From IMG/VR virus record IMGVR_UViG_3300025129_000005: a DNA stretch of 64,000 nt, one strand, 5' to 3'. Positions 6,458-53,278 of the stretch are shown piece by piece. This stretch comes from a virus. Taxonomy: Duplodnaviria > Caudoviricetes. The notes under the pieces are model-generated. The model made no database searches and was not told the DNA's origin. It saw only the letters and a list, made by a program, of their open reading frames with translations. A program made the translations under genes and the position numbers. Position 1 is the first letter of the stretch, and every line of letters starts with the position of its first letter.

Positions 6458-6713
6458 TGGATGTGGTTGGTTTTCCAAACCTGAACCTGAAATTGTTACA
6501 AAAATATCATATATTTACGTATATAATAAATGTCCTATACCAAAAGTACCAGAATATACAAAGCTTGATAATTCTAGTCATATAGGAAGTGCTTTTAATA
6601 TAAATATTCTTGTAGGAAATGTAGAAAAAATGAAATCCTATAATAAAAGTTTGTTGGGGTCATTGGAGTGTTATGACAAACAAACCAAGGAGATAAATAA
6701 TGATAGACATTGA
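6402..6713 (+). CDS. Outer-membrane spanin lipoprotein (Rz1-like)
   Basis: Signal peptide with lipobox 'LGINGC', then Pro-rich 'CPIPKVP'; overlaps i-spanin 3' end. Confidence 0.65.
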   Translation: MMLKVPKLFIVLTLFLGINGCGWFSKPEPEIVTKISYIYVYNKCPIPKVPEYTKLDNSSHIGSAFNINILVGNVEKMKSYNKSLLGSLECYDKQTKEINNDRH

Positions 6714-6958
6714 TTTATTAGTTGAAAGATATATAATAGATGCTAATATTTATTCGGGGAATAAAACTCCGATGTCCAGAGTAGAAGCTTTGAGTGAGTA
6801 GATTGGAAAAATCAAAAGACAAAGATGAAATGGGGTTTCTTGTCAGAGTTGCTAGTTTTGCCGGTGCGACTCGACATGAACTAGAAGATGCTCTTAATGG
6901 TAGAAAATATAATTTCTATACAGCAGATATCAACAAAGAAAAGCGATGGAGATGGTGA
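6700..6958 (+). pseudogene. Small ORF disrupted by a 4-bp duplication (GAGT GAGT, 6792-6799)
   Basis: Removing one GAGT restores one frame from ATG 6700 to TGA 6958. Confidence 0.45.
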
Positions 6959-7173
6959 TGAATAACATATTAGATCGAATTAATGATAAACTGGATGAGA
7001 TGGCAAAAGGAGATTTTGCTGGATGGGTTGCTATGTATGGTGGTAAGCGCATTGAAATTACCAAAGATCAAGCAACAGATTTATATGGAGCAAAACAGCT
7101 TGCTATCAAACAGTTAAAAGTTCCCAAATCAAAACAAGGTCTTTTAGCTATAAAGCTGGGTTATGAAGAATAA
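6958..7173 (+). CDS. Small hypothetical protein
   Basis: TGATG coupling; ORF track. Confidence 0.55.
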   Translation: MNNILDRINDKLDEMAKGDFAGWVAMYGGKRIEITKDQATDLYGAKQLAIKQLKVPKSKQGLLAIKLGYEE

Positions 7174-7559
7174 TGAGATTTGAACGATACATAAACGAAG
7201 GTGATGGTGATTTTGACTTAAATAAACGTATCGTTTTTTCATGGAAAGGTCATAAGGTAGTTAATACCGAGCATGGTAAGCAACGCATCAAACAACGTAG
7301 TGATATTACGGACTTTCAAATGTTGACAATGTTCAAAAATGCTATTAAGAAGATTGAAAGTAAATCCGTAAAGATAGGGGAAAAAATTGTTTTTTGGTCT
7401 AAAACATTAGGACAAGCTTTTATAGCAAAGATAGATGATGTTAAGGATTTGATATTACTTACGTTCTTTCCGAGACACAAGAAACCGAGTGGAGTAAATG
7501 ATCCATATCAACGAGAAGTTGTTATAGAAGGCGAACATTTAAGAATAGTGGAGATATGA
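7173..7559 (+). CDS. Leader-bearing protein, possible RelE/ParE-like RNase fold
   Basis: MRFERYINE leader; 'TEHGKQRIKQR' resembles the H-x-x-x-R-x-x-x-R motif of DUF4258/RelE-like toxins. Confidence 0.45.
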   Translation: MRFERYINEGDGDFDLNKRIVFSWKGHKVVNTEHGKQRIKQRSDITDFQMLTMFKNAIKKIESKSVKIGEKIVFWSKTLGQAFIAKIDDVKDLILLTFFPRHKKPSGVNDPYQREVVIEGEHLRIVEI

Positions 7560-7564
7560 AATTA

Positions 7565-8263
7565 ATGAGGCTTGAGCAGTATATAACCGAAAGCATTAAC
7601 GATAAGGGTATTTTCAAGGCCATATTCATGGCAGGTTCGCCGGGATCAGGAAAGTCGTTTGTAAGAAAAAAATTGTCAGGTGGGTATGAACCCAGAGTCG
7701 TAAATACCGATAAATTCACAGAATTCTTCGGGGGGTGGAATGGTTTTAGTGAGAAGATAAAACTTCTTAATAATAATCAATTATTGTTATATTTAAATTC
7801 TATGTTACCTCTTTGGATTGACGGAACTTCTGGTAATAGAAACAATCTCATGACAAGAGAAGGTCTTTTGTCAGGGATGGGATACGATACTGGTATGATA
7901 TGGGTCAATACTGACCTTGACGAAGCAGTTAAGAGGGCACAGGAGCGCGAAGCCCATGGCGGTAGACATGTTGATATCCCTTGGTTAAAAGAAACTTACG
8001 AAAAAATTCAGAAGATGAAATCATTCTATATGACTCGTTTTCAATGGTTCTTAGAGGTTGACAATAATACTGGACAATTAACTGATGAAGTGGTACAAAA
8101 TCTATACTCAAAAACACTTCCATTTTTTGGGGGACCAGTGAAAAACCCACATGGGCAAGAAATTATAAATACTTTAAAAGAGATGGGTGGAAAATACCTT
8201 ACGGATATGGAAGAATATGATATGAAGTTTATTCAAAATAGAACAAAAGCGTGGTTTACGTGA
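7565..8263 (+). CDS. P-loop kinase (zeta-toxin/AAA_33-like) with leader
   Basis: 'MAGSPGSGKS', 'VNTD', 'IDGT', 'AVKRAQER'; MRLEQYITE leader. Confidence 0.75.
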   Translation: MRLEQYITESINDKGIFKAIFMAGSPGSGKSFVRKKLSGGYEPRVVNTDKFTEFFGGWNGFSEKIKLLNNNQLLLYLNSMLPLWIDGTSGNRNNLMTREGLLSGMGYDTGMIWVNTDLDEAVKRAQEREAHGGRHVDIPWLKETYEKIQKMKSFYMTRFQWFLEVDNNTGQLTDEVVQNLYSKTLPFFGGPVKNPHGQEIINTLKEMGGKYLTDMEEYDMKFIQNRTKAWFT

Positions 8264-9099
8264 TGAAAAAGTTCTACGATAAATTAAATGAGGCGACAAC
8301 TCTATCTTCCGGTGGATATACTAATCCCGGTGATGGATCTGGTATTACAGGTGATGATGATCTTCCTACTGGTACGACTGTGTTTGGTGATAAAATGGTG
8401 CCTGTTGTTGTAAATAATCGATTAACAGGTAAAACCATAAAGTATGTACCAGCCGAGGATCTAGGTCAAGGGTGGAATTATGATGAATTTGAAAATTCAT
8501 CTGGTATGGGATCAATAAAAGGGTATTCAACGACACTCTTAGGTTTAAGAGAATTATTAGGGAAAAGGTTGTTTAAACATGCCCAAAAAGAGAAACTTAA
8601 GATGCAGACTGATAAATGGGATAAGCGTTCAGGGGATCAAGATGATAGCGGTACTAATCAAACAGCAAAGATCAGTGATGATGATCCTTCAAAAATAGAA
8701 TTATCTAAGGGTGGAACTGAAAGTGAAATTAAGAATGAAAAACCCGAAACAAATGATCATTGGAGAGAAGTGCCTATGAAACATATTGGCGATTTAGACA
8801 TAATGGAGAAAATTAACAATTACTTAGGGGAACCCGAAGAGATGGTTAATGAGGTGGTTGCTGATGCGAATGACAGGAAATTATTAGCACAAGCTATCAT
8901 AAAAGGCAAGAACACAAAGATAAGTATTAAGAGTTTAGGTGTTCAGGCGATTGTGACCAATTCTGAGGCTGAAACTATTGTAACATACCAAAAAAATGAA
9001 GATTTTACTCTAATTTTAGTGGATATTGCTGATACTTTGGGCATGGAATTTAAATTAACCAAAGATGGTGGAAAACAAGCTTTCCGTTTAATAAAATAA
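8263..9099 (+). CDS. Hypothetical protein with leader-like N-terminus
   Basis: MKKFYDKLNE start; 278 aa. Confidence 0.6.
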   Translation: MKKFYDKLNEATTLSSGGYTNPGDGSGITGDDDLPTGTTVFGDKMVPVVVNNRLTGKTIKYVPAEDLGQGWNYDEFENSSGMGSIKGYSTTLLGLRELLGKRLFKHAQKEKLKMQTDKWDKRSGDQDDSGTNQTAKISDDDPSKIELSKGGTESEIKNEKPETNDHWREVPMKHIGDLDIMEKINNYLGEPEEMVNEVVADANDRKLLAQAIIKGKNTKISIKSLGVQAIVTNSEAETIVTYQKNEDFTLILVDIADTLGMEFKLTKDGGKQAFRLIK

Positions 9100-9109
9100 A
9101 ACCCTGTTA

Positions 9110-9451
9110 TCAATCGAACAGGGTTTCTTTATACCTCTGACCTTCTATGATATTGTATTCTGTCACATCAAAACCTTCAATGTTGTAATATTTGAGTCTA
9201 GTCTCTGAGTTTTTGGTTAGATTCTTCTCTGTATCGCAAATATCCCAAACAATTGCACCATTATCTTTATCTGCATGAAGTCTCAAGGTTCGTCCTATAC
9301 TCTGTAAGATTCTTATCTTACTTTTAAATGGTGATGCAAGTATTAAGTGTCTCAGTGATTTAATGTTTATTCCCTGCTGGAAAATCCCGTAAGTGGCGAT
9401 AAGAACTATTTTCTTTGCCACGAAATCCTCCTTTACTTCTGTTGGTTTCAT
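9110..9451 (-). CDS. uvsW: UvsW-like SF2 helicase, C-terminal fragment (part 3 of 3); alternative GTG start at 9421
   Basis: 'LIATYGIFQQGINIK' (motif V), 'LQSIGRTLR' (motif VI); AAAGGAGG SD before GTG 9421. Confidence 0.85.
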   Translation of the reverse strand: MKPTEVKEDFVAKKIVLIATYGIFQQGINIKSLRHLILASPFKSKIRILQSIGRTLRLHADKDNGAIVWDICDTEKNLTKNSETRLKYYNIEGFDVTEYNIIEGQRYKETLFD

Positions 9452-9468
9452 GCGTCACGTATCTCCTG

Positions 9469-10626
9469 TTATGCTAGCTTTTCCCAAGCTATATTTTGTG
9501 GACTTTTTAGTTCTTGTAAACGAACCGTGGCATTTGCACCAAATACTCTATTTGCGTATCTCAACCACAAATCCATAGTTGAGGTTTCCTTAGATCCTTT
9601 TCTTCCGATCTTCACTTTCAATACAAAACCAGTAGCTTTTTTATCAGTAATATTATATGAAATATCTTTAATTTCTAAGGGGTTGTTTGTCAGTTCTGAT
9701 CTTGAAGGAACATAATATAGACTCTTCTGTGACTGATAAAAATATGGTTTAACGGAAAAGTTTAGCAATTTTTCTATAACATGTGTGTTTGTTAATGCAT
9801 TAGATATTAGAGGCAAAACACCATTAGCAGCCGCTTCAAATACCTGCTTTGATAATGTGCTGAATTCTTGGGTATTTGCTGTTAAATGTGCCCCAAACAC
9901 AGAATGTAATTCAATATTATGCCCAACTTCGGCTAGCAATCCACTTTCTGTGTAATCTTTACTTTTGTTTTTAGCAACAACAGTATATGAATTATCCGTA
10001 TTATATCTGATATTATAGTGTGGTGACCTTTTATCGGGAACATAAATTTCTCCCTTCATACTCTTGGCTTTTGCTAGAGTTGACTTCATAACCACAGTCT
10101 TCCATTTATCATATAATCCCGTACTAACTTTATCACAATAAAATTTTATACTATCAACTCCTTTGGGGTTTTCTATACCAAGATGTGAGGGTGACAAATT
10201 AGATAATGTGATACCTTGCTTCCCTTTAATCGAAATGCCGAACGCAGAAGAACCAACAAATTCAACGTCAGCTGGATTACTATCATCACCCTTGGCATTT
10301 GTACCGCCCACCCAAAATAATTTTGGTATTGATCCGACTTTACCTGTGACTAATTTTTTTCTGGACTTTGATATTTCATAATATGTATTGAATACGTTAG
10401 CGTTATAGTTTATAGGAAGAAATTTAAGTATTTCTGAATAAACGTGATCAGGATTTTCCAATTTATTGGAATCCCACCATAAACTAGGGTCAAACTCAAG
10501 ACTGGTAGGATCAAATCCTTTTAAATTCTGAGTCTTTGTAGTATATGCTAGAAGACATGCTAATTCGGTATTGTACCGTTCGGCACCAGACTTCCCACCC
10601 TCAAGTAAATATTGTTCGAATTTCAT
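9469..10626 (-). CDS. PD-(D/E)xK-like endonuclease with leader
   Basis: 'NPADVEF...FGISIK' catalytic-like motif; MKFEQYLLE leader; overlaps methylase stop. Confidence 0.55.
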   Translation of the reverse strand: MKFEQYLLEGGKSGAERYNTELACLLAYTTKTQNLKGFDPTSLEFDPSLWWDSNKLENPDHVYSEILKFLPINYNANVFNTYYEISKSRKKLVTGKVGSIPKLFWVGGTNAKGDDSNPADVEFVGSSAFGISIKGKQGITLSNLSPSHLGIENPKGVDSIKFYCDKVSTGLYDKWKTVVMKSTLAKAKSMKGEIYVPDKRSPHYNIRYNTDNSYTVVAKNKSKDYTESGLLAEVGHNIELHSVFGAHLTANTQEFSTLSKQVFEAAANGVLPLISNALTNTHVIEKLLNFSVKPYFYQSQKSLYYVPSRSELTNNPLEIKDISYNITDKKATGFVLKVKIGRKGSKETSTMDLWLRYANRVFGANATVRLQELKSPQNIAWEKLA

Positions 10627-11447
10627 AAGTTATCTTTATTATCCTCGTATAATTGTATAAATTCCCCTATTGTAAACGTGGGGCTTATTGCAGTTGTATC
10701 ATACGAATATTTATACAATAAATGATTTAGTTTTTTTAACTTTGAAACAATAATATCACTGTCAACTTTTAAGAATATAAATTGTGTTATTGGGGTTGCA
10801 TAGCTAGATTCAATTAACTCACCTACACGATTGCTGTATCCTGTTCTACGAATAGCATAGTTAGTGTTGTTTATATCAAATTTATTCCCCTGTGGTATGA
10901 CTTGGAAATCAGATGAATGTTTTGGTAATATTATTTTCTTTCTAGGAAAAAAATCTTTTTTCCAGACCTGAATACAACATCTAGCGTTTGTACCTGATAC
11001 AAATGATCCAATATCAACATTCAATTGCTGATCCAAGTGAAATCTTGTGTCAAGCTGGTTAATTATATATGCTTTTTTAAACGATCTTGGTAGTATAAAT
11101 GCTATAGTATCACTATACTTTGCTGCATGATTAAAGAATTCGATAGCCAATTGCGCTCTGAATCCAAATGGCGGATTGCCGATGGTTAGAATTTTCTGAC
11201 CATCTTTGGGGCGCATATCAAAATCAAAGAAGTCCATTTTTTTTATAACATCATCATTTTCGGGTGCGATATCTAAGGCAATTAGCTTTGATGCATCTAT
11301 AAAATTACATATAGAACCATCACCAGCAGAGGGTTCTATTATGTGGTCATAATCATCCTGATTTATAAGGCTCACCAATTTCTTCGAAACATCAACATTT
11401 GTGTAATGTTTGTCTAGTTTTTCTTTTGTCTGTTTTTGTGTCATCAT
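10623..11447 (-). CDS. N6-adenine DNA methyltransferase
   Basis: Motif I 'IEPSAGDG', motif IV 'GNPPFG'. Confidence 0.88.
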   Translation of the reverse strand: MMTQKQTKEKLDKHYTNVDVSKKLVSLINQDDYDHIIEPSAGDGSICNFIDASKLIALDIAPENDDVIKKMDFFDFDMRPKDGQKILTIGNPPFGFRAQLAIEFFNHAAKYSDTIAFILPRSFKKAYIINQLDTRFHLDQQLNVDIGSFVSGTNARCCIQVWKKDFFPRKKIILPKHSSDFQVIPQGNKFDINNTNYAIRRTGYSNRVGELIESSYATPITQFIFLKVDSDIIVSKLKKLNHLLYKYSYDTTAISPTFTIGEFIQLYEDNKDNL

Positions 11448-11476
11448 TTATTATGTGTCACACCTTATATTCGTAA

Positions 11477-12280
11477 TCAATCTTTACTAATATTACTTGT
11501 AATCCAATCGTCAGCAATATCATCATCAATGGTGATTTCTGATGCTTTCTTGAAACTGCCATCCGTGAGAGGAATATTTTCATCAGGACTAATTTGTATC
11601 TCAGTTTCACCGAAAAAAAGTTTAATCACCTTTTCACCCTGATCATCCATACATTTACGCCATCTTTCTCTTTTTGTAGCAGAATCTTTACCACTTAAGA
11701 ACTTTATTTCATGATCTTTAAGGGTCTCATCTTCCTCTAAAACCGTCTTTAATGTTTCACCCTCATCCGACACCTTACCTACAAGAATCAACACATTACC
11801 GTCCGAATTCTTAATGATGTCCTTGATTAGACCCTGACGATATGAATTATTAAAACATATATCCTTTATTTCGTTATAATTAGCTAGACCTTGGCGATGT
11901 GAATTATCAGAGCATATATCCTTTTTTCCTGTATGACTACTTCTCGGTGGTACTTTATATTCAATATGAACCATTTTAATGAATGCTTCTGCAACGTAAC
12001 CCATCTTGGCTAATCTTGAGGCACCATATTCACGTAATACCGGACCGAGATAGGATTGAACTTGTAGACAATCCAACTGTTGAGAGGGCATTGTACCAGT
12101 AAAACCAAATCTCCATCTTGCATTAGGACACATTTGTAACAATTCATTTAATACGATTGCTTTGCAGCCATGACAATTGGATACAACTATATCATTGGCG
12201 ATATAATTGTTATTATTTTTTACATGGAGATTGTATACCTTATCAGGTTTTTCAATTTCAGTTCTTTTTACGAGTCGCAT
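11477..12280 (-). CDS. uvsW: Split-intein C-part (35 aa) fused to UvsW middle fragment (part 2 of 3)
   Basis: 'KVYNLHVKNNNNYIANDIVVSN|CHG' intein end; 'GFTGT' motif III. Confidence 0.88.
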   Translation of the reverse strand: MRLVKRTEIEKPDKVYNLHVKNNNNYIANDIVVSNCHGCKAIVLNELLQMCPNARWRFGFTGTMPSQQLDCLQVQSYLGPVLREYGASRLAKMGYVAEAFIKMVHIEYKVPPRSSHTGKKDICSDNSHRQGLANYNEIKDICFNNSYRQGLIKDIIKNSDGNVLILVGKVSDEGETLKTVLEEDETLKDHEIKFLSGKDSATKRERWRKCMDDQGEKVIKLFFGETEIQISPDENIPLTDGSFKKASEITIDDDIADDWITSNISKD

Positions 12281-13190
12281 TTAATTTCCTTGTGGTTTCT
12301 TCATCAAACACACCATCAGCGAGACGATGAATGTTATCTGTTATATATTCTTCTGTTAAAATGTCATAAGTGTATCCGTTAAGATAACACCATTCAGACA
12401 AACACTCTTCTTTGGTACGTTCTACCTTCCCATTAACTCTACACATTGGTTTTAGTTCTACAATGTGTTTTGTGTTATGATTAACAAAATCCACGATATA
12501 TATCTTATCTTTGCCTTCAATATTATACGGTATTCTCAAGGTTTCGTATTCATAATCTTGATTGAAGTGGTGAAAGAATGCTTCCCATGACGATCTATAT
12601 TTTTTATTGTTATAATATACTTGCCAATGTGTATGTGAATTATGAATATTTGGTGTAAAATCTCCATTCATAATCAACTTTTTAACAGAAACAGATTGTT
12701 TATATCTTTGCTCTTTTGTAGGTATAACACCAAATGAAGGGTTGCCTTCACCCATCCTATCACAAGAAAGTTTTAACAAACGGTCATCATCTTCTTTTGT
12801 TAGTCCTTTATTCCAAGGAGATAATCCTGTTTGTATGTCTTTATTCCAAGGGTTACCAGTGTTTAAGTTGTTACGTATCTTATCACCATGTTTGTCCTGA
12901 CAACCAAGACCGCCCTTTTTTGCAATATCATGCTTCATTTGTCTATAATATTTTTCCCTTATATTAGAGTCTATGTTATATAATAAATCAAACATGGTTA
13001 CATATGGCGATTTTAATATTCTTCTGTTAAGAGTAATTACATCGTTTCTTCTTTCAATAACAAGACCATTAGACAATACAGATTTCGTTGGGCTGTAGTT
13101 CTTTACTCTGAGTAATTGATTATTTTTTTCTAATACATCGTTTAGTTTGTTTCTATGGTTGTTATGTCTTGATATTTCGTTGTTTCTCAT
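12258..13190 (-). mobile_element. Free-standing homing-type endonuclease between the split-intein halves
   Basis: NUMOD-like 'PWNK' repeats; C-terminal 'YRSSWE...YIVDF...IVELKP' PD-(D/E)xK/TnsA-like domain. Confidence 0.75.
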
Positions 13191-13223
13191 AATACATACC
13201 CTCTTGTGATGTGAACTTATAGG

Positions 13224-13231
13224 TATTTATA
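13224..13231 (-). promoter_or_regulatory. Late promoter for the endonuclease
   Basis: TATAAATA on the minus strand, 34 nt upstream of ATG 13190. Confidence 0.5.
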
Positions 13232-13236
13232 TTTTT

Positions 13237-14190
13237 TTATTCAAACCCTATAACATCATGTTCACAAGTTAACTCATCTGCCCTGATATAACCTTTATCG
13301 GTAAGTATTTTATGATTACCTGTAACTCTTAATATTTCACCACCATCAAATTCTAACTCATACATTCTCTCGTTAGATGATATAGTCATGTTTTCGTATA
13401 CATCTTCAATTATATCTTGTTCATATTCATTAGTTTCGGTGTTATACGAAATAACGATGTCCCCTATAACCAAATCTTTTATCTTTTTATAGCCATTGTC
13501 GGTTTTTATGAGAGTATCGCCATCAACACACTCATCCACAATAACCATATCCATATGTTCCATATAGTGTTTTACATTGTTTAGTGACTGCCAAGTACTG
13601 ATAATTAAAGGGTTGTTCCATTCCTTCCACTTATCACCAACACGCCCAACAGTAGACATATCCACTCCATATTCTTTCATATCACCATAGAACTGAGTGA
13701 CCAGACCAACAGAAGGCACAATAATTATACCGTTTTTTGTTAAATTCTTTTCTTGTAGTGCTTTAACAACATATGATATCATTAAACTTTTACCACTGGC
13801 CGTTGCAGACCTGATGATGCCTTTACCTGTCTTAAGACACGCAGAGATACAATCATCTTGATAGTTATATGGTTGAAATTTTAAGTTTTTGTGATATTCG
13901 GGTTTGATTCCGACAAATAAAGACTTTACTTCGGATGAAAGTGTATAAGGTAATTCTGACCATTCTTTCTTATGATACTTAATTAACTCTAATAGTAGAC
14001 CATAAGGTATAGTCCTCTTCACGGAGTCCATAAGACCAACTTTACCATCCCAGCTTCCGCACTTATATTGTAACATAAACTTATAACCGTCAACGTAATG
14101 ACGGAAATATTCTTTTACTTCGGTGAGATATGTCCAATTTTCTGTATCGATTCTGATATGAAGAGGATCATGTAATTCTAAATTAACCAC
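13237..14190 (-). CDS. uvsW: UvsW N-terminal fragment fused to split-intein N-part (97 aa, 13530-13240) (part 1 of 3)
   Basis: 'ATASGKS' Walker A; 'VIVDE|CVDGDT' intein start; 'VTGNH' block B. Confidence 0.9.
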   Translation of the reverse strand: MVNLELHDPLHIRIDTENWTYLTEVKEYFRHYVDGYKFMLQYKCGSWDGKVGLMDSVKRTIPYGLLLELIKYHKKEWSELPYTLSSEVKSLFVGIKPEYHKNLKFQPYNYQDDCISACLKTGKGIIRSATASGKSLMISYVVKALQEKNLTKNGIIIVPSVGLVTQFYGDMKEYGVDMSTVGRVGDKWKEWNNPLIISTWQSLNNVKHYMEHMDMVIVDECVDGDTLIKTDNGYKKIKDLVIGDIVISYNTETNEYEQDIIEDVYENMTISSNERMYELEFDGGEILRVTGNHKILTDKGYIRADELTCEHDVIGFE

Positions 14191-14193
14191 TAA

Positions 14194-14676
14194 TCAATAA
14201 CCGCCTTTACCGTTCTCACAGAATAATTTCATATTCCATTGTAATTTATCCATTGCTTGCCAAATAGTCTCGAAATATTTAACCCTCATTTCCTGCTTTC
14301 TGACCAAACCTTTTAATTTTATCAGATCAGGATCTTTAGGTAAATAATATCGTTCTATTTCAGTTTTTGTTAAAGTGACCGCACCGTCTTTCAATGATAT
14401 ATATTTATCACCGATCATCTGTGCCAAACGGTCTTCGACGGTAGATAACTTGGACTGTTCTTGCAAAAATTTGAGGCGAAAGTCTTTCATGTGGAACGAT
14501 AGACGTTGTAATCTTTCTTGAATATTAAATTCATTAAAAGTAAGAAGATCATATACATTATATTCCTCTTCCAACTTTTTAAATATACTATCCTCGTTCA
14601 ATTCTTCACGTATTTTATTGAGGACTGCTTTAGTTTCCTCGTTATAAACACTTAACATGTGAGTGTAATCTGTCAT
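14194..14676 (-). CDS. UvsY-like recombination mediator
   Basis: Helical, about 160 aa, next to uvsW as in T4; 'YYLPKDPDLI...KYFE'. Confidence 0.55.
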   Translation of the reverse strand: MTDYTHMLSVYNEETKAVLNKIREELNEDSIFKKLEEEYNVYDLLTFNEFNIQERLQRLSFHMKDFRLKFLQEQSKLSTVEDRLAQMIGDKYISLKDGAVTLTKTEIERYYLPKDPDLIKLKGLVRKQEMRVKYFETIWQAMDKLQWNMKLFCENGKGGY

Positions 14677-14791
14677 ATAATAAACAAATCCTTTATTTTT
14701 TTTTTTGAAATGGACGTAAACATCAAGATTTCATTTGATCAGTGTAGCCGGGGTTACTTCCAAAAATTCCATAAGAACTATTCCATTGTCA

Positions 14792-14822
14792 TTGACACAA
14801 TGTACCATATTTAGTATAAATA
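14792..14822 (+). promoter_or_regulatory. Overlapping sigma70-like and late-type promoter upstream of helicase
   Basis: TTGACA(14792)-17-TATAAA, within TATAAATA (14815-14822). Confidence 0.55.
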
Positions 14823-32017: not shown

Positions 32018-32233
32018 TTAGACTAAATCTCTCAACTGTTTTTCTAATTTTCTCATTTCTGTTTCTATTTTCATTATCTTCTTCTTTAATTCTTTATCAG
32101 TCACCCTAACAGAAACATATCTAAAATATTCATCAAACTCATTCCATTTAATTAATGCACTTTCTATTTGATGATAATCATTTATGTCTTTTTCACCAAT
32201 ATATTTCTCTGTGATATAATTTATATTATTCAT
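32018..32233 (-). CDS. Small protein with leader-like N-terminus
   Basis: 'EKYIGE'; GGAGG SD. Confidence 0.6.
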   Translation of the reverse strand: MNNINYITEKYIGEKDINDYHQIESALIKWNEFDEYFRYVSVRVTDKELKKKIMKIETEMRKLEKQLRDLV

Positions 32234-32568: not shown

Positions 32569-32823
32569 TTATATCATCACATAAACATATTTATTGTCAC
32601 TATATTTTTCCAATGATATATCACGAGTATATCTATGACCTCTTTTATCCTCAAGGGTAATGCTATCAGAATCGGGTAAAAGGTTCTTGTCAATTAAAAT
32701 GGTTTGATTTGATTGTCTCACCCCTTTTACTTTCTTTGTTCTGGATATATGACCCAATACATCGAAAACTTCTGTAGTGGATTCACATAGGTATTGCTCC
32801 ACGATAGAATCAATGTTTTTCAT
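32569..32823 (-). CDS. Small protein with leader-like N-terminus
   Basis: 'EQYLCE'; AGGAGG SD. Confidence 0.6.
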   Translation of the reverse strand: MKNIDSIVEQYLCESTTEVFDVLGHISRTKKVKGVRQSNQTILIDKNLLPDSDSITLEDKRGHRYTRDISLEKYSDNKYVYVMI

Positions 32824-32849: not shown

Positions 32850-32857
32850 TATTTATA
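32850..32857 (-). promoter_or_regulatory. T4-type late promoter
   Basis: TATAAATA on the minus strand, upstream of three leader-bearing genes. Confidence 0.55.
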
Positions 32858-42717: not shown

Positions 42718-42719
42718 AG

Positions 42720-44387: not shown

Positions 44388-45914
44388 TTAGTTTTCTTCT
44401 CTGTCCTCTTTCTCTACCTTCTTCTTTTTTTTATTCTTGATATAATCAGGTCTATTGGTAACCATATAAACTCTAGCAGGATTAACCACTGATCCAGATC
44501 TTATCATAAAATCTTTATTGATTAGAACAGGTGTTGTTTTATGACTACGATCATTTAAATTAAACGGTACTTTTGAATAATTAACACCTTCAAATGTGAC
44601 ATTTAATTCTACAACTACCCTCTTCTCATCCAATTTTTCTTCCGAATCAGAATTATTTTTCATTCTAATTTCGTTTAATTTCGTCCCTGACATCTTTTTA
44701 CCCATAGTAGACCATGTTACCTTAGACCCTTCGACATTAACGTCTTGTGCGTCAAGTGAGGAGCTACCAGCGGCATTTCCGGTGTCAAACCGAGCATGTA
44801 ATTGACCGATACCCTCGATCTCTATGGATTCAATCACACCAATCTGCTGTGGTGGTCTATTCCAATTTATGGTATTCTTTGCATATTGCATCACCATATC
44901 AACAATATCTAATTTGGTCAGTTCCTCTATACCATCTGTACCGGGGGAAGAGTTAACCTCAAGAATATATGGGTTTCCTTCAACATCAAACATGATATCC
45001 ACGCCGCACCATTTACACTGAACTGATTTTGCAGCTTTAACTGCCAATTCTCGTATTTCCTTGGTTGGTCTATATTTACCAGTCTTTCCGCCTAGATGAA
45101 CGTTTGAACGGAAATCGTTATCAACGACCTTTCGCTTCATTGCCGCAATAACCTTGTCACCCAAAACATGAAGTCGAACATCATGGTCAGACTTAACGTA
45201 TCTCTGCAACATCATCTCAACTTCATCACCAACAGCCCATATAGCTTGAAGTGTGGACTTTAATGCTTTGTACTCATTGACAATGAATACACCTTTCCCC
45301 TGAGTACCACTTAATGTCTTAACAACAACAGGAAATCCACCGCCAACTTTTTTGTGTGCCAACTCAAGCATTTCCTCTGTAGGAACTAGCGCAGTATCAG
45401 GAACAGGAAGACCAGCTTCAACTAGCTTTAATGTTGTTAAATACTTGTCTTCACATGTTTGAATAGAAGACTTTTCGTTCAAGAAACAAAAACGATATCT
45501 CTCAAGACGTGACATAAGGTTTTGTGAATATCGATGAAACATAACACCGCGTCTGGCAATGACAAAAGTTTTATCACGATCAATCTCATGACCTTCTTTA
45601 TCACCAACGTTATAGATCTTGATAGTTCCTTCGTCGCCTTTCTCAAGATAAGCAGTGTCAGCGAATGCTGTGTAAAAAGGAACATCATTTTTGCTACACC
45701 ATTTCTCTATTTTGATGATAGTTGGGTTCTTTTTTGACATCTTTCTATTCTTGGAATCGGTAGATGATGTTAGTATAAGGATATTAAACCCTTCAACCTC
45801 ATCAATATCAACCATTTCCTCTTCGGGATCAGAGTCAATACCATCTGCTTCATGGATAACAGAATTTAACTTTAACTTTTCAAATTCTTCTTTAAGTGAC
45901 ATTTGATACCCCAT
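44388..45914 (-). CDS. RimK-family ATP-grasp ligase fused to a retropepsin-like protease domain
   Basis: 'VVKTLSGTQGKGV', 'DNDFRSNVHLGG', 'CGVD', 'LEVNSSPG'; C-terminal 'ARFDTG...LNDRS..LI'. Confidence 0.85.
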   Translation of the reverse strand: MGYQMSLKEEFEKLKLNSVIHEADGIDSDPEEEMVDIDEVEGFNILILTSSTDSKNRKMSKKNPTIIKIEKWCSKNDVPFYTAFADTAYLEKGDEGTIKIYNVGDKEGHEIDRDKTFVIARRGVMFHRYSQNLMSRLERYRFCFLNEKSSIQTCEDKYLTTLKLVEAGLPVPDTALVPTEEMLELAHKKVGGGFPVVVKTLSGTQGKGVFIVNEYKALKSTLQAIWAVGDEVEMMLQRYVKSDHDVRLHVLGDKVIAAMKRKVVDNDFRSNVHLGGKTGKYRPTKEIRELAVKAAKSVQCKWCGVDIMFDVEGNPYILEVNSSPGTDGIEELTKLDIVDMVMQYAKNTINWNRPPQQIGVIESIEIEGIGQLHARFDTGNAAGSSSLDAQDVNVEGSKVTWSTMGKKMSGTKLNEIRMKNNSDSEEKLDEKRVVVELNVTFEGVNYSKVPFNLNDRSHKTTPVLINKDFMIRSGSVVNPARVYMVTNRPDYIKNKKKKKVEKEDREEN

Positions 45915-46144
45915 TATGAGTTACTATTTCTAATATCTTTGTCTACCTCAGCGCCCAATTTACGTAAATCGCTGATAATTCTATGAACTTTCTTTCTGAT
46001 ATTAAAATTAATTATTTCCATTTCCGATATAGTTTCTAATTGAAACTGGATATCCTCAAACATCTTATCAACATCGTTTGCGATATCTTTAGGAGTGTTA
46101 CGACCATTTAATATTTCTTTAAGATATTCTCTTATATTACTCAT
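45914..46144 (-). CDS. Small protein with leader-like N-terminus
   Basis: MSNIREYLKE. Confidence 0.55.
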   Translation of the reverse strand: MSNIREYLKEILNGRNTPKDIANDVDKMFEDIQFQLETISEMEIINFNIRKKVHRIISDLRKLGAEVDKDIRNSNS

Positions 46145-46194
46145 TCATTAGACCCTACCTATTAATTATATTTTTCTGTTACATTTATCAGGTC

Positions 46195-47622: not shown

Positions 47623-47701
47623 ACTAACTCCTAGTTATAATTTATATTAGTATTTATCTTATATTACTACATATATACTTTGACCGATATTAAAACTCTA
47701 T

Positions 47702-48361
47702 TCACAATAACTTGGTCAATTCATCCTCAAAAAACGGGTCTATCAGGTAGTATTCTTTGCATCTCCACATAGATTCAAAAGTCCTCTGACTTAACCACGT
47801 TTTCATACCACTATCTCTGAAACCTTCAACCCTTTTCTTCCATTTTTCAAGTTTCTTACGATCATAGTCATCATCCCCATTAGTACCAGCAATATCATTA
47901 ATAAGTTCACCATTTTTATCAAAGTTTATGACACGATGTGGTGTGTTTATAAATAAATCATCAACGTCAGGGTTATATATGTATTTGTATTGACCTATTG
48001 GCATGAATATCAATCCGTAACCATAAGTATAAGTCTCGCTATAATTATGTGTTGCAAATACACCAGTATTACGAGGCATCCAACCAAATTTCTTTTTAAA
48101 TATTTTATTCAAATAATCCTGTATGTCCTGTCTCATGTTCATAGGTTTTCTATTCATACGAGGTTTTTTCTTGAATATGGCAAATTTATCTTTATCATTC
48201 TTACCCAGAGACCTAACGCCACGATAGAAATACCAATCAGTACCAAATTCACGAAGATATGGTGCGCATTTTCTTTTAAGTTCATCAGCAATCTCTTCGA
48301 CAGAATTAAATTCAACCCTTTCAGCCGAGGATTCTTCGGTTATATATCGAACTAATCTCAT
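47702..48361 (-). CDS. ADP-ribosyltransferase-like paralog 1 with leader
   Basis: MRLVRYITE; 'FYRG', 'GVFAT', 'YGYG..FMPIG', 'ESMWRC'. Confidence 0.55.
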   Translation of the reverse strand: MRLVRYITEESSAERVEFNSVEEIADELKRKCAPYLREFGTDWYFYRGVRSLGKNDKDKFAIFKKKPRMNRKPMNMRQDIQDYLNKIFKKKFGWMPRNTGVFATHNYSETYTYGYGLIFMPIGQYKYIYNPDVDDLFINTPHRVINFDKNGELINDIAGTNGDDDYDRKKLEKWKKRVEGFRDSGMKTWLSQRTFESMWRCKEYYLIDPFFEDELTKLL

Positions 48362-49008
48362 TAATACCTCTCAATGCCCAGATATTTTGATAATTCATCT
48401 ATGATAACCATGTCAACATAATAGTAACCATTAGGGCAATTAAATATAACCTCTCGTGCTTGTTTATCACGCCAAGCTTTTTTTAGATTACCGCCGAAAT
48501 AACCATCAACCAAAAAATCAACATCCTTCTGTTCCAAAAAATACAAAGGATCTTTATAACGTAATCTAAGTTCAGATTCTATTTGGCTTTGTGCTATAAA
48601 AAAATCATAATGATCTTCTGAATACACAAACTTATACCCATTCACAGGAAACATTAAATATAAGTTTTTTCCGTACCCCCTAGACATACCGGGTCTTGTT
48701 GCGGTAAACACTCCCTCACTTCTGACTTTCCAACCAAATTTTTTCATGAATGATTTGTCTGCCATATCGTGGACACGTTTTCTTGTATCAACAGGTCTTC
48801 GATTCAGCCTTGGTTTTTGTTTAGAGATAAAAACGCCCCTTTCCAATTGTCGGTTAGTCCCTCTATAAAGAAACCCCCCAGTCTCTCTTATAAACAGAGA
48901 ACAATCCTTTTGTAATATTGTTAAAACATTATCAAGATCTGGATCCTCTCCACGTATTCTGGTACCTTGCTCCGTGATAAGGTCTGTTATGTACTGTTCA
49001 AATTTCAC
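48361..49008 (-). CDS. ADP-ribosyltransferase-like paralog 2 with leader
   Basis: MKFEQYITD; 'LYRG', 'RSEGVFT', 'YG..YLMFP', 'REVIF'. Confidence 0.55.
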   Translation of the reverse strand: MKFEQYITDLITEQGTRIRGEDPDLDNVLTILQKDCSLFIRETGGFLYRGTNRQLERGVFISKQKPRLNRRPVDTRKRVHDMADKSFMKKFGWKVRSEGVFTATRPGMSRGYGKNLYLMFPVNGYKFVYSEDHYDFFIAQSQIESELRLRYKDPLYFLEQKDVDFLVDGYFGGNLKKAWRDKQAREVIFNCPNGYYYVDMVIIDELSKYLGIERY

Positions 49009-49038
49009 TAAAAATACCCTCTACAATTCAACTTAATT

Positions 49039-49782
49039 TTATTGGGATGCGGCGATTTTCTCTCGTATTTTTCTGACCGCAGGTAATTCCGATTTTGCTG
49101 TATGTTTAATTCCAGTATAAAATATGGCTAACATAAGGTTGTATATTGTTCTACCCAACCATGGAACAGAAATAATAGATCCCGTGGCAAACAAACCAAT
49201 CAACATCAGCCCGTCAGGAGATCCAAAAATGTCCTCAAGACTATAAGCACCCTTCAATGCTAATGCTATATTTGTGAAATCGAAATCATAATCCAAATTA
49301 CCTATAAATGTCATCTGAGTCCACATAAAAAATAACAGCCCTGCAACAACCGATCCAGTAACTTTCTTAAGTAGAGGATACTTTTCGGCAAACTCATCAA
49401 ACTTAATCGTCCCCTGTCGTATCTTCTGATATATTTTGGTTTTGTATAATTCACTGAATATCTCAAACAATCCTTGTCTAATAAACATCGTCAGAGTATT
49501 GACAGACTTAAAAATAACTTTTAATGAAAACCCAAATGATTTAAGCAACTTGAACATATTCTTTTCACTAAAAGCATTGATTATCTCTACGGCACTTAGA
49601 CCAAAATCAAATATCATCTGATCGAGAATTTCGCCCGCCTCTTTAAACTTCCTGACAATAAACCCGACCGCCTTGTCCTTTAAATCAACAAGACCCTCGT
49701 CTACACCAAAGTAATAGTTTATTCCTTGGATGTATTGTTCATATGTAACATCAGATTCATTTATATACTGCTCAAATCTCAT
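49039..49782 (-). CDS. Membrane protein with leader
   Basis: MRFEQYINE; hydrophobic C-terminal helices. Confidence 0.6.
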   Translation of the reverse strand: MRFEQYINESDVTYEQYIQGINYYFGVDEGLVDLKDKAVGFIVRKFKEAGEILDQMIFDFGLSAVEIINAFSEKNMFKLLKSFGFSLKVIFKSVNTLTMFIRQGLFEIFSELYKTKIYQKIRQGTIKFDEFAEKYPLLKKVTGSVVAGLLFFMWTQMTFIGNLDYDFDFTNIALALKGAYSLEDIFGSPDGLMLIGLFATGSIISVPWLGRTIYNLMLAIFYTGIKHTAKSELPAVRKIREKIAASQ

Positions 49783-50518
49783 ATAAATATTCTCCCTGTG
49801 AAGAACTAACCATCACCGTCTTTGTTGACCACCACACTTCCTTGTTAAACGGTAATACATCACCAACCTTTCGCAAAACAAACCCATTCTTTGCCGGATC
49901 AAGGTAATCAGTACACGCCTGTAACATGTTACCATTGTAAAACTCCTTAAAAAAACGGGACACTGGCTTATTTTTATGCGGCGAGCTTAATACCTCATCC
50001 ATTTTTTCAAATTGTTTAAGTAAAGTTCCCCATTTATCAGAAGGTGATTCCTTTATATACGTTTCGAATGCAAACTTAAGATCTTCATTGAAAGTATCAA
50101 GCGAAGGACTAAAGGAATCCCATAAATCATCCTCTGGACATACACCAATATCAGTACCATCAATGGGTAGCATTATATAAGTTTTTCCTATGTGACGATC
50201 GACCCTGCTGGGGCTTGAAGCACCAATTACTGACTTACTTCTCTTTGGATATTTGTTCCATAACGACATATTATCCATCATAACAGTATAATAATTATAG
50301 GTATATCGAGAATCTCTTTTGAATCTTGATGGTTCAACAACACCATAGTCATTTGTGTAATTTTCGGAACTTCTATATAAACCACGACCCTCTGTATACA
50401 TTCTCAGTGAATTACTGCATCTCTTTTTAATGAATTCAAACGCATCTTCACGACTGATCGGCTTGGTTCGACCACTAGTTCGTTTAGAATCCTCTATTAA
50501 AAAATTTTCTAATCTCAT
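49772..50518 (-). CDS. ADP-ribosyltransferase-like paralog 3 with leader
   Basis: MRLENFLIE; 'LYRS', 'RSKSVIG', 'YIMLP', 'KEVWW'. Confidence 0.5.
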   Translation of the reverse strand: MRLENFLIEDSKRTSGRTKPISREDAFEFIKKRCSNSLRMYTEGRGLYRSSENYTNDYGVVEPSRFKRDSRYTYNYYTVMMDNMSLWNKYPKRSKSVIGASSPSRVDRHIGKTYIMLPIDGTDIGVCPEDDLWDSFSPSLDTFNEDLKFAFETYIKESPSDKWGTLLKQFEKMDEVLSSPHKNKPVSRFFKEFYNGNMLQACTDYLDPAKNGFVLRKVGDVLPFNKEVWWSTKTVMVSSSQGEYLYEI

Positions 50519-50533
50519 AGTAGCTCCTAAATA

Positions 50534-51370
50534 TCAATCAATCTGCGGTAAATTGTGACGATGCAAGAAAAAACAAGCCTCTCCTTGTTCATACAACAAT
50601 CTCCCTATATCATCAAAGGTAATATAACACTCACCATTCATCCCCCATGACTTACCCCATGAATTATGTATAGTGAATCTTTGTTTGGATACATTAACAG
50701 AATTAACTAAAACACAATGACCACCAGCTATTTCACCTTTTGCATAGATATATCCATTAGAATCAGGATAGAACATTCCGGTATACCAATTAATCCCAAT
50801 TACTGCTGGACCGTTATATCCAACACCCAATATCAAGTCCTCCAATCCGAATGCCCAACGATACTCCTCTATCCACCCGAGTTTCTTCGCAACCTTGGCT
50901 CCAGCCAAAACACTCGTCCCTTCATAAAACGGGAATCCTCCGGGATATGACCCACCATTCCATTCATCGATTTTCTGTGCTTCCCAATATATTTTTTCTT
51001 TGGCATATCGTTCCGTGATACCTCTGACTTCTGCTGGTCTGGCGATCAATTCATGGGCAATACCAAAACCAACACAGGCTCCATCAGGTCCCTGATCCAG
51101 TTGAGCATCGCATCTCCATGTATAGGAACGTCTCTTCTTGGTACTGACTGTCGACCTTATACCATATCCACGACTACGTTCATCGAACTGGACTATACGA
51201 TCAAGTCTAGCGTCACTCGTAATAACATGACCCTTCAATAATATACTTCCGTCAACTCGCATCTCATTTACAATTGAATTGAGTTTTTCGTCTTCAAGCT
51301 TCTTGATGTGTTTCATTTCTTTAACTTTTTCCAGATAATCATTATGTCTTGATTGTACAGTGCTACCCAT
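50534..51370 (-). CDS. Papain-like (C1) cysteine peptidase
   Basis: 'DQGPDGACVGF', 'GGHCV', 'NSWGKSWG'. Confidence 0.88.
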   Translation of the reverse strand: MGSTVQSRHNDYLEKVKEMKHIKKLEDEKLNSIVNEMRVDGSILLKGHVITSDARLDRIVQFDERSRGYGIRSTVSTKKRRSYTWRCDAQLDQGPDGACVGFGIAHELIARPAEVRGITERYAKEKIYWEAQKIDEWNGGSYPGGFPFYEGTSVLAGAKVAKKLGWIEEYRWAFGLEDLILGVGYNGPAVIGINWYTGMFYPDSNGYIYAKGEIAGGHCVLVNSVNVSKQRFTIHNSWGKSWGMNGECYITFDDIGRLLYEQGEACFFLHRHNLPQID

Positions 51371-51388
51371 ATCAAATCTCCTTTGTTT

Positions 51389-52222
51389 TTATTGAATATA
51401 AGCTTCCATTTTATCTTTAAAACTTGGATCATTCCATAGACTCAATTCAACTAAAATACAGTAACCATCAGTCCATACCTCTTTTCTGCGGGGAATGGCA
51501 TTACCGACCTTTTTTAATTGAAAATTTTTATCAGGTTCCATGACTGTTTTATAAAATCCAAAAAGGTCTTTGCTATCGAACCACATATCAATCAAATTAT
51601 CCGTCGGACTGTAACTTGATAAAATTTTTGACAAATCTTTTCTTATGTCACGGTCAGTATTCATTCGCCCTATTATATCATTTATCGTTGAAAGCTTTGA
51701 CCAAGATCCGTCATAGGGTCTGGCTATAGTAGGATAATTATAACTCTTTTCTTCTATATAACCCATATATGACCAAATAGTATCATCAACAAACGCATTT
51801 ATTTGACCTAAATCTTCGCCGGTACTTTTATAACTTACAGAAAATATATCATCGTAATTAACAACACCCACTGTAGACCCATCTTCTGGAAGAACAACAT
51901 AAAGTCTGTTCCCATAAGACATAGCTTTACCCATATCAGTAGAACATATAACACTTTCACTTCTTTTGGGATATCCCGAGAAAGTACCTCCATTGTCCAT
52001 GAAAAGGGTATAATAATTAAAGGTGTTTCTGGATTCTCTTTTTCTGTTCTGCTTAGGATCAATCTCCATAACAGTACCTTTACCAAGTACACCACGAAAG
52101 ATAAGATTATTTTTAAGTGATCTATTATAAGCCTTCATGCATCTTTTGGATATAATCTCAAGACCCTTATCAAGGTTAATACTTTTGCTCCTGCCTTCAT
52201 TTAAGTAATGTTCTAATTTCAT
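51389..52222 (-). CDS. ADP-ribosyltransferase-like paralog 4 with leader
   Basis: MKLEHYLNE; 'IFRG', 'RSESVICST', 'YG..YVVLP', 'KEVW'. Confidence 0.55.
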   Translation of the reverse strand: MKLEHYLNEGRSKSINLDKGLEIISKRCMKAYNRSLKNNLIFRGVLGKGTVMEIDPKQNRKRESRNTFNYYTLFMDNGGTFSGYPKRSESVICSTDMGKAMSYGNRLYVVLPEDGSTVGVVNYDDIFSVSYKSTGEDLGQINAFVDDTIWSYMGYIEEKSYNYPTIARPYDGSWSKLSTINDIIGRMNTDRDIRKDLSKILSSYSPTDNLIDMWFDSKDLFGFYKTVMEPDKNFQLKKVGNAIPRRKEVWTDGYCILVELSLWNDPSFKDKMEAYIQ

Positions 52223-52592
52223 AATGATTTCTTAAGCCTTTGTAAGAATTTCGTATCAAATGCATTATTTTCGAATGATACGATATAATATTCATAACAT
52301 TTGAACATGGCCTCATGGGATGACTCTGCTTTCCACCCATGATATTTAAAAAACAACTCATCCATGAGATCATGTAAATGTTTCGGAGTGTCTTTAGGAA
52401 CCATTTTTCGTCTCGACCTGACTTTTAGGATATAATCACTCATCTCTTTTTGTGTGCCACGATATACGGGGTTATATGGTTGTACTCCAAACTCTTTAAT
52501 GAATGGTTGACAATCCCTTTTGAGGACATCAATGATATCATCCATTTCCAGTTCGCGCTTTGTTGGTTCTTCTTCATTTTATACAGTTTCAT
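52219..52592 (-). pseudogene. Decayed ART-like paralog 5: frameshifted leader plus internal deletion
   Basis: ATG 52592 (MKLYK) is out of frame with NEEEPTKRELEMDD...; the central RS-GVF-T-YG block is missing. Confidence 0.6.
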
Positions 52593-53278
52593 TACGACCT
52601 CGATATATAAAGAGTGCCATCTTTTATTTTTCCGGTTAAAAAATATTCCTTAATATATTTATGATAATCCACGTCGATCAAATAATATCCGCTACACTTC
52701 CATACGACTTCTATGACATAGTGGTGACCGTTGACGTTCTGATATTTTTTCAGCCCTTTATCTGTATATTTTGGTAAAAATTCCTCAATATACGATTTGC
52801 CTTTATTATACGCAAATTTATCAGACGTGTCGCCTTCTTTGTATTTTTTTATCCATTCATATGTGATAGAAAAATCAGCTATATCAATCACATCTTTGTT
52901 GTAGAGATAACTGTATGCTCCGACTGGAAAGAATAGAAACGATTTATTCCCATATTTAAGCGAATTACGATAGTCTGTTGATGTGTATACCCCCTCTGAA
53001 CGCCATTTCCACCCCCATTTTTTCTTACTCCATTCATCGAGAAAATAATGCATCAACAACTCGGAATCCTTCGGTCTTCTGTCCTGTCTTGCTGTACGAT
53101 ACATAACTGCATGTGTATTAATATTTGTCCCCCGGAAAAAACGGCTACCGGATACATTAAATTCCTTTAACCACGGAGCGCAGTCTTTCTTGATCATTTC
53201 ACAAACATCAATTAGGTCTGATACATTTTTAATATCTCTACTCTGATACCCCTCGGTCAAATAATGTTCAAGTCTCAT
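52592..53278 (-). CDS. ADP-ribosyltransferase-like paralog 6 with leader
   Basis: MRLEHYLTE; 'FFRG', 'RSEGVYTST', 'YG...FFP', 'IEVVWKC'. Confidence 0.55.
   Translation of the reverse strand: MRLEHYLTEGYQSRDIKNVSDLIDVCEMIKKDCAPWLKEFNVSGSRFFRGTNINTHAVMYRTARQDRRPKDSELLMHYFLDEWSKKKWGWKWRSEGVYTSTDYRNSLKYGNKSFLFFPVGAYSYLYNKDVIDIADFSITYEWIKKYKEGDTSDKFAYNKGKSYIEEFLPKYTDKGLKKYQNVNGHHYVIEVVWKCSGYYLIDVDYHKYIKEYFLTGKIKDGTLYISRS

Follow-up and report, generated by a model that had tools for sequence, protein, structure and literature searches.

In a stretch of 64,000 nucleotides from an uncultured jumbo relative of phage T4 (IMG/VR record IMGVR_UViG_3300025129_000005; hereafter the window, meaning the whole stretch that was analysed), nine open reading frames (ORFs) begin with the same kind of short peptide, a tag that is real, modular and conserved. 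Judged from its sequence, this nine-residue tag, M-[RK]-[FL]-x-x-[YF]-[IL]-x-E, together with variants of 10 and 13-14 residues, is most likely the phage's version of the T4 capsid targeting sequence (CTS). The same interpretation had been put forward in a sequence-only reading of this DNA and is supported, indirectly, by the likeness of the tag to T4 leaders, by its terminal [IL]-x-E site of the gp21 type, by the unrelated folds that carry it, by the head-assembly genes of the same phage and by the published virion proteome of the jumbo phage Atu_ph07. In the scheme that we favour, the tagged proteins would be made late and brought by the tag into the scaffolding core of the assembling prohead, where a prohead protease of the T4 gp21 type would remove it after the final Glu. 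The mature proteins would remain in the head with the DNA and would probably enter the host alongside it, as the T4 internal proteins and Alt do. Core binding, cleavage, location in the head interior, injection and timing of action are steps that we infer. The cargo proposed for the window comprises five paralogues of an ADP-ribosyltransferase (ART)-like superfamily, a P-loop kinase, three proteins of unknown fold and possibly five smaller proteins with variant tags.

A nine-residue tag heads nine open reading frames

The strict pattern M-[RK]-[FL]-x-x-[YF]-[IL]-x-[ED] was run on every ATG, GTG and TTG in the six frames of the whole window. It matches exactly nine starts and no others, each heading an ORF of 128-385 amino acids (aa), while a rough estimate based on residue frequencies gives a chance expectation of about 0.01 matches. 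To avoid circularity, a position matrix was derived solely from the N-termini of outside homologues (described below). With this matrix, the nine tagged starts reach 11.4-23.4 bits and the next-best start codon 5.6 bits; the best of 68,630 non-start positions used as decoys scores 10.5 bits, below all nine. All nine leader-bearing ORFs (7173, 7565, 10626, 48361, 49008, 49782, 50518, 52222 and 53278, named by their start positions) read as the sequence-only reading had claimed, and the scoring matrix that it had suggested as a check separates them from every other start and from the decoys. Tag scoring covered about 104 kb of the contig of about 214 kb. The nine carriers are as follows, with the predicted cleavage point marked by a slash and the matrix score in brackets.

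7173-7559, plus strand: tagged ORF of 128 aa, MRFERYINE/G (20.1 bits)
7565-8263, plus strand: tagged P-loop kinase of 232 aa, MRLEQYITE/S (23.4 bits)
9469-10626, minus strand: tagged ORF of 385 aa, MKFEQYLLE/GGKSG (19.4 bits), adjoining a DNA methyltransferase gene (10623-11447)
47702-48361, minus strand: tagged ORF of 219 aa, MRLVRYITE/E, family A (18.7 bits); phrog_11975, phrog_15932
48361-49008, minus strand: tagged ORF of 215 aa with a GTG start, MKFEQYITD/L, family A (11.4 bits, the weakest of the nine)
49039-49782, minus strand: tagged ORF of 247 aa, MRFEQYINE/S, with no recognised relatives (23.2 bits)
49772-50518, minus strand: tagged ORF of 248 aa, MRLENFLIE/D, family B (18.7 bits); matches phrog_12810 positions 22-244
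51389-52222, minus strand: tagged ORF of 277 aa, MKLEHYLNE/GRSK, family B, the protein that was modelled (17.2 bits)
52592-53278, minus strand: tagged ORF of 228 aa, MRLEHYLTE/G, family A (20.1 bits); first gene of the minus-strand cluster, with an identical start in the public gene call

The consensus of these tags is MRLEQYITE/G, and their last three residues are [IL]-x-E in eight of the nine and I-T-D in the remaining one (49008). Since every copy of the motif begins with the start codon of its ORF, its conservation might reflect a signal in the RNA, such as a translation enhancer. However, the nine copies encode the tag with different synonymous codons almost throughout and have dissimilar upstream regions, which indicates selection on the peptide and not on the DNA. 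In the same vein, relatives keep the peptide pattern while swapping residues, as with the Trp found in Atu_ph07, and we consider an RNA-level signal barely credible.

The relatedness of the carriers was compared after removal of their first 12 residues. Family A (48361, 49008 and 53278) and family B (50518 and 52222) are joined by a weak link (E 2e-5), and the proteins 49782, 7173, 7565 and 10626 show no similarity to one another or to the other carriers beyond the tag. The tag thus heads at least five groups without mutual similarity beyond it. The sequence-only reading had spoken of about 15 unrelated proteins; the modularity that it saw holds for these groups, whereas the count was overstated, as five of the nine strong carriers belong to a single ART-like superfamily. 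This paralogy, and the fact that a very large family (8,723 cluster representatives) keeps its N-terminus, would suit an alternative in which the tag is the inherited first helix of one superfamily and its other occurrences are due to chance or domain shuffling. Against it, the kinase and the 385-aa, 128-aa and 247-aa proteins are unlike that family beyond the tag, the chance expectation and the decoy scores given above leave little room for coincidence, and in models the tag is not part of the fold; we regard this alternative as highly improbable. Indeed, the AlphaFold model of the family-B protein 52222 has a predicted local distance difference test (pLDDT) of 93.6 with residues 1-5 below 50, and residues 1-24 of the 10626 model also lie below 50. 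Structural alignments of the 10626 protein in the Atlas begin at residues 9-12, and its homologues P0155 and P0156 retain the tag, with core similarity beginning directly after the Glu, at GGxSG. In these two predicted structures the tag would accordingly stand outside the folded domain.

The likeness to T4 is close. In the T4 record, ipII and ipIII start with MKTYQEFIAE/A, ipI starts with MKTFKEF and has ITE/Ala at residue 19, gp22 starts with MLKEQLIAE/A and gp24 with MAKINELLRE/S, the gp23 propeptide ends in FLTE before AEIGG, and Alt, annotated as entering the host with the DNA, starts with MELITELFDE. The CTS of IPII and IPIII and the related leaders of IPI, Alt, gp22 and gp24 are described by Mullaney and Black 1996, as related in PMC13326640, and in a review (PMC3012670). 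The consensus MRLEQYITE has Met1, Glu4, Gln5, Ile7 and Glu9 in common with the gp22 leader and, allowing a one-residue gap, the basic residue, the aromatic residue, the Ile and the final Glu in common with ipII and ipIII.

The tag is conserved among jumbo phages and found on virion proteins

A profile search with families A and B against 1.84 billion proteins retrieved 8,723 cluster representatives (E <= 0.001); of the 150 best matches, nearly all align from the first residue. Among the best 149 outside homologues, R/K occupies position 2 and L/F/Y position 3, each in 88% of the sequences; position 6 has Y/F in 77% and position 7 has L/I in 86%, with the Glu at position 9 or 10 defining two length classes. 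Leaders in the closest relative (71% identity) include MRLKTYLTE and MRLEQYITE, and those of a 484-kb phage are of the MKLKNLLSE type. The homologue in phage RsoM2USA starts with MTTFKEYLTE, a 10-residue form that bridges the tags of the window and of T4; the proteomics of this phage covered ten major bands and are uninformative on tagged ORFs. In our literature searches, no description of a capsid-targeting tag came up for this jumbo-phage clade.

Experimental evidence comes from Atu_ph07, a cultured jumbo phage of Agrobacterium. It has eleven consecutive tagged ORFs, ten with M[RK]WxQLxE and one (gp63) with MRLFQLLE. A genome-wide scan for M-x-W-x-x-L-x-E gave 13 matches, versus none in the control, all 13 of them at annotated starts of coding sequences; they correspond to gp53-62, gp381, gp408 and gp482. 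These ORFs were tied to Table S5 of PMC6102473 by computed molecular weight, with agreement to 0.01 kDa. This table lists 131 of 714 proteins detected in virions by electrospray ionization tandem mass spectrometry (PMC6102473), and all 14 tagged proteins (the 13 pattern ORFs and gp63) are in it (hypergeometric P of 1.6e-10 for 13 and 2.7e-11 for 14), with sequence coverages of 12-46%. Atu_ph07 gp204, the homologue of T4 gp21, is also present in virions (PMC6102473). The main text of that paper mentions neither a prohead protease nor paralogues, and the tagged array is listed as hypothetical virion proteins.

Two further proteins of this virion list may carry variant tags (loci L006:13956-14984 and L007:2005-2889). 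The start of gp407 is probably misplaced, an internal Met giving MKLINLLE, and gp483 starts with MLLSELFD, which is near the MELITELFDE of T4 Alt.

N-terminal peptides can also serve as degrons, and genes for ClpX, ClpP or ClpS occur in part of this phage group (PMC7824862), coding sequence 2 of Atu_ph07 being a ClpX. The tag could on this basis be a degradation or regulatory signal, for instance of the Clp type, that controls protein stability and not packaging. However, Atu_ph07 virions stably contain the tagged proteins, at the coverages given above, and the strong resemblance of the tag to the capsid-targeting leaders of T4 would have to be a coincidence, so that we hold a role in protein stability to be very unlikely.

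Head-assembly genes of the same phage and possible fates of the tag

The window was linked to a head module by exact-protein look-ups through contigs that are 99.9-100% identical in their overlaps. About 40 kb downstream of the window, a Pfam scan of the contig L015 identified Portal_T4 (320.2 bits), Gp23 (356.6 bits), Peptidase_S77 (85.1 bits, cut-off 27) and T4_CASP (38.8 bits, cut-off 27). The phage genome consequently encodes a prohead protease of the gp21 type, along with a scaffold of the gp22 type and a capsid protein of the gp23 type; the protease gene is placed as follows.

L015:14432-15049: Peptidase_S77 prohead protease, identified by Pfam

The protease starts with MKKGFLITE and the scaffold with MNLKKILE, both with [IL]-x-E sites, in which the scaffold is rich; the N-terminal region of the capsid protein aligns by eye with the T4 gp23 propeptide. 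Another tagged ORF (MKLLKYINE) comes after the capsid gene, and the 40 kb or so past the window contain six more strong tags. Complex prediction for the scaffold and the 128-aa tagged protein gave a score of 0.00, which speaks neither for nor against binding.

A giant protein encoded between the window and the head module measures 2,266 aa in one contig (L014:10557-17357) and 2,190 aa in another (L015:2463-9035). As these contigs are otherwise 99.9% identical, the difference suggests a repeat-length polymorphism within the phage population.

Several points weigh against the capsid-targeting interpretation. Atu_ph07 virions were only partially purified (polyethylene glycol and differential centrifugation), and the list of 131 proteins includes likely contaminants such as ribonucleotide reductase and a RecA-like protein. 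The paralogues of the Atu_ph07 array are non-independent observations and, in the window, the paralogy of five of the nine carriers means that part of the tag sharing is by descent. Besides, 49008 has an Asp and not a Glu at the predicted P1 position, and the T4 late-promoter word, TATAAATA, is not enriched in the window (16 found versus 10.2 expected).

Because of the partial purification, the Atu_ph07 proteome speaks for virion association and not for location or processing. It would also be compatible with a tag that directs proteins to the virion as an uncleaved docking helix, binding the scaffold, the capsid or hair-like or whisker structures, with no injection of its carriers; Atu_ph07 indeed has hair-like fibres on its head and tail (PMC7824862). 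However, the tag ends in a gp21-type [IL]-x-E that matches T4 leaders known to be cleaved, the phage's own protease and scaffold have similar N-termini, and the cargo, made up of soluble enzymes with a kinase and ART-like proteins among them, is poorly suited to forming fibres. Uncleaved docking is for these reasons unlikely, if less so than the other alternatives, and a cleaved capsid targeting tag remains our preferred interpretation.

Late-promoter words ahead of tagged units

Exact copies of TATAAATA precede four tagged units. The relevant copies are these.

5688-5695, plus strand: exact word ahead of the plus-strand unit 5708-9099
8164-8171, plus strand: exact word 92 nucleotides upstream of 8263
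10708-10715, minus strand: exact word inside the end of the methyltransferase gene, 82 nucleotides before the start of 10626
32850-32857, minus strand: exact word ahead of three small genes, 32823-32018
53360-53367, minus strand: exact word 82 nucleotides before the start of 53278, at the head of the cluster 53278-47702

The late promoters assigned to the tagged clusters by the earlier reading are thus exact words at 5688 and 32850, whereas those at 47651 and 53948 are one-mismatch words and carry no weight, as the window holds 210 of these. A shared 5' leader for 10626 and 53278, both with a spacing of 82 nucleotides, was considered and rejected; their upstream regions are not alike and the common spacing was treated as chance.

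Possible variant tags on smaller proteins

Weaker versions of the leader had been noted at 8263, 32233, 32556, 32823, 46144 and 52592. None of these candidates passes when scored with the outside-homologue matrix, and their standing differs from one to the next.

8263-9099, plus strand: acidic 278-aa protein with a probable 10-residue variant tag, MKKFYDKLNE/A, resembling the leaders of P0086 and P0148
32245-32556, minus strand: basic 103-aa protein with a probable long-form tag, MDIVSKITKYINE/A, nearly identical to the P0092 leader
32018-32233, minus strand: 71-aa protein with a possible long-form tag, MNNINYITE/KYIGE/, not individually significant
32569-32823, minus strand: 84-aa protein with a possible long-form tag, MKNIDSIVEQYLCE/S, not individually significant; first gene after the TATAAATA at 32850-32857
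45914-46144, minus strand: 76-aa protein with a possible 10-residue tag, MSNIREYLKE/I, not individually significant; its homologue in the 71%-identical relative (L005) starts with MSKLSEHLNE
52219-52592, minus strand: decayed family-A paralogue with no recognisable tag, consisting of a 108-aa ORF that lacks the N-terminal region and an out-of-frame upstream ORF of 50 aa

Two of them, 8263 and 32556, gain support from outside the window. The family-B homologues P0086 and P0148 start with MTKFY[KN]YINE, similar to the 8263 leader, which has the length and pattern of the T4 MKTYQEFIAE, and the family-B homologue P0092 of another phage starts with MDILDKITKYLNE. Variant leaders appear in this way to be exchangeable on family-B cargo, which supports both candidates. 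The tags of 32233, 32823 and 46144 are possible, each having the Y-[IL]-x-E end inside the first 10-14 residues, while 52592 proved to be a frameshifted, decayed and tagless paralogue. Over the called genes, the core motif occurs 13 times in the first 16 residues versus about 3 estimated from its rate elsewhere in the same proteins. A long-form pattern drawn up post hoc matches 2 starts versus 0.3 expected, a result that is only suggestive and that missed 32556.

Just before the first tagged gene, a 75-aa ORF (6946-7173, plus strand) reads MNNILDRINDKLDE from its second in-frame Met, a start that resembles the long-form tags of 32233 and 32823.

Cargo functions

The labels given earlier to the cargo (kinase, RNase-like, nuclease and ART-like proteins) fared unequally: the kinase passes curated cut-offs, the ART-like assignment is weakly supported, and the nuclease and RNase-like proteins remain leads. 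The 7565 protein matches AAA_33 (28.8 bits, cut-off 27) and Zeta_toxin (27.8 bits, cut-off 22.3) and has a Walker A motif, GSPGSGKS, at residues 25-32. It also matches positions 259-475 of phrog_12810, in which, in other phages, the kinase domain is fused behind a family-B domain in a single protein.

In families A and B, R43 (in YRG), S90 and E248 are invariant across 71 sequences. A Pfam scan matched no ART family, a sequence search of the two families against the PDB gave no match, and Foldseek with the family-B model found no PDB match at E <= 0.001. In the AlphaFold DB clusters, this model retrieved unnamed proteins only, together with weak YubB-domain and DUF3990 entries. VIA-align placed Arr first (Z 6.6, root-mean-square deviation 3.2, 85 aligned) and also returned diphtheria toxin (Z 5.2, root-mean-square deviation 3.3, 81 aligned), both below the level at which the tool is trustworthy; exotoxin A, cholix toxin, tankyrase, DarT and PARPs were likewise in the top 50 at Z 3.4-4.7, below the same level. 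The recurrence of this consistent but weak signal from a predicted structure gives weak support to an ART fold.

No match was found for the 7173 and 49782 proteins in Pfam and PHROG, and the Atlas returned nothing usable for 49782. The Atlas look-alikes of the 7173 protein come from phages; 38% of one cluster carries DUF4258, and a ParE toxin matches at TM 0.46/0.61, so that a small DUF4258/ParE-like domain, and with it the RNase-like idea, can be kept as a lead. For the 10626 protein, RE_HaeIII is found on 19% of one Atlas cluster, and there is an invariant PADVEF...SIK stretch, in which the model has a pLDDT below 50. A fold search with this model gave nothing above Z 4.9, HinP1I reaching only Z 3.7. 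A restriction-type nuclease of the PD-(D/E)xK class is possible. The antibody matches that alone came out of a sequence search of this protein against the PDB were judged to be chance and set aside.

The cargo cluster also includes a gene with a different N-terminus.

50534-51370, minus strand: untagged peptidase gene with the N-terminus MGSTVQSRHN; phrog_16701 peptidase (E 5.9e-58) and a weak Peptidase_C1 match

Two observations concern the organisation of families A and B. The outside homologue P0005 (2,645 aa) carries five tandem family A/B domains and starts with MDLSLVKEILNE; by analogy, it resembles the polyvalent injected proteins of other phages. In the 71%-identical relative (L005:1319-2003), the counterpart of 53278 is in two pieces, a tagged stub of 37 aa and a remainder of 169 aa. 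Given this broken copy and the decayed copy at 52219-52592 of the window, the cargo paralogues of these families seem to turn over quickly.

Source phage and neighbouring genes

The window has a G+C content of 34-38%. The family-B DNA polymerase of this phage shares about 29% identity with the counterparts in T4-like cyanophages, and the window also encodes a DnaB-type helicase, a second helicase interrupted by an endonuclease gene, and RtcB. A near-identity DNA search of the GenBank phage collection with the cargo cluster and the polymerase region gave no match, nor did an exact-word search and a peptide-pattern search of IMG/VR. The only relatives retrieved for the cargo proteins come from the jumbo phages Atu_ph07, RsoM2USA and SCTP-2 and from the 484-kb metagenomic phage. 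About 100 blocks of the assembly collection contain proteins of the window, the contigs reaching about 0.2 Mb in length, and a JGI contig of 213,887 bp is 100% identical to the window across 10.9 kb.

The second helicase (11477-14190, minus strand) appears split into ORFs at 13237-14190 and 11477-12280. The ORF between them (12258-13190, 310 aa) matches endonuclease and HNH-type PHROGs, with an exact TATAAATA at 13224, just upstream; the arrangement looks like a homing-endonuclease or intein-type insertion. Further along, a 508-aa protein (44388-45914, minus strand) combines a RimK-type ATP-grasp ligase (142 bits) with a C-terminal Zn_protease/RimB-like domain (31 bits). It has an [IV]-x-E-Ala site near residue 22 that is kept in the window and in the relative L005, and judging from this site it may also be processed in the head. 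Past the RtcB gene, about 1.7 kb (57547-59245) are nearly devoid of ORFs; a tRNA search of the window found none, and an Rfam search of this ORF-poor stretch returned no family.

Implications

At its broadest, the interpretation would have a short address code, composed of Met, a basic residue, a hydrophobic residue and an aromatic-[IL]-x-Glu end, label the full set of packaged and injected proteins throughout a large and mostly uncultured clade of T4-related jumbo phages, with an undescribed, very large and divergent ART-like family in tandem arrays as the commonest cargo, acting on host targets at DNA entry. We advance this wider proposal tentatively and give it slightly less than an even chance. 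If it were true, sets of injected effectors could be read directly from metagenomic phage genomes. The principle itself is already known from T4; what is described here is a T4-type tag that heads many proteins of enzyme size in an uncultured jumbo phage only distantly related to T4, and that is also kept in Atu_ph07, in RsoM2USA, in a 484-kb metagenomic phage and in thousands of homologues from metagenomes. The particular gain from the window is the link between this tag and published virion proteomics, through which the tag may account for a block of 'hypothetical' proteins in the Atu_ph07 virion. Besides, it offers a cheap sequence rule for predicting virion-delivered proteins, whose genes are candidates for host takeover and anti-defence, and a testable route to protein packaging in jumbo capsids.

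Comparison with known systems

The T4 capsid targeting sequence is the textbook case of a signal by which a phage sends proteins into its head to be delivered together with its DNA and, to our knowledge, discussion of it has so far centred on the T-even phages and the small internal proteins that they carry. The tag of the window is likewise N-terminal, 9-10 residues long, with a basic residue after the Met and an aromatic-[IL]-x-E end that corresponds to the gp21 site. In both cases the signal is borne by otherwise unrelated proteins, and genes for a Peptidase_S77 protease, a gp22-type scaffold and gp23 are present. However, the main tag of the window is one residue shorter and occurs alongside forms of 13-14 residues. 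It also has more carriers, nine strong ones in the window and six in the next 40 kb, and its cargo is mostly enzyme-sized, in contrast to the small internal proteins of T4, with no member homologous to these or to Alt.

T4 Alt, a mono-ADP-ribosyltransferase that is packaged and injected, is itself a virion-borne enzyme with an N-terminal leader, to which families A and B may be compared for their invariant Arg, Ser and Glu and their weak ART-fold matches. They differ from it in size (215-280 aa), in a helical insert and in their arrays of tandem paralogues; a comparison with Alt by hhalign gave a probability of 0.1, and no family A/B member was found in T4.

The phiKZ-like giant phages, such as SPN3US, form a separate phage lineage. 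Their propeptides are long and cleavage occurs after S/A/G-x-E, and we know of no short shared N-terminal tag of the T4 type among them. In SPN3US, packaging of inner-body and ejection proteins depends on propeptides; many proteins enter the head together with the DNA, undergo processing by a prohead protease and are ejected into the host (PMC5694885, PMC7411985, PMC10052503).

Finally, a further parallel is the gp53-gp63 array of Atu_ph07, which consists of family A/B homologues (13 domain matches) arranged in tandem, each tagged and all found in virions. It differs from the window in the Trp at position 3 and the Leu at position 6 of its tag and in the fusion of some members to further domains (gp53, 778 aa; gp54, 490 aa).

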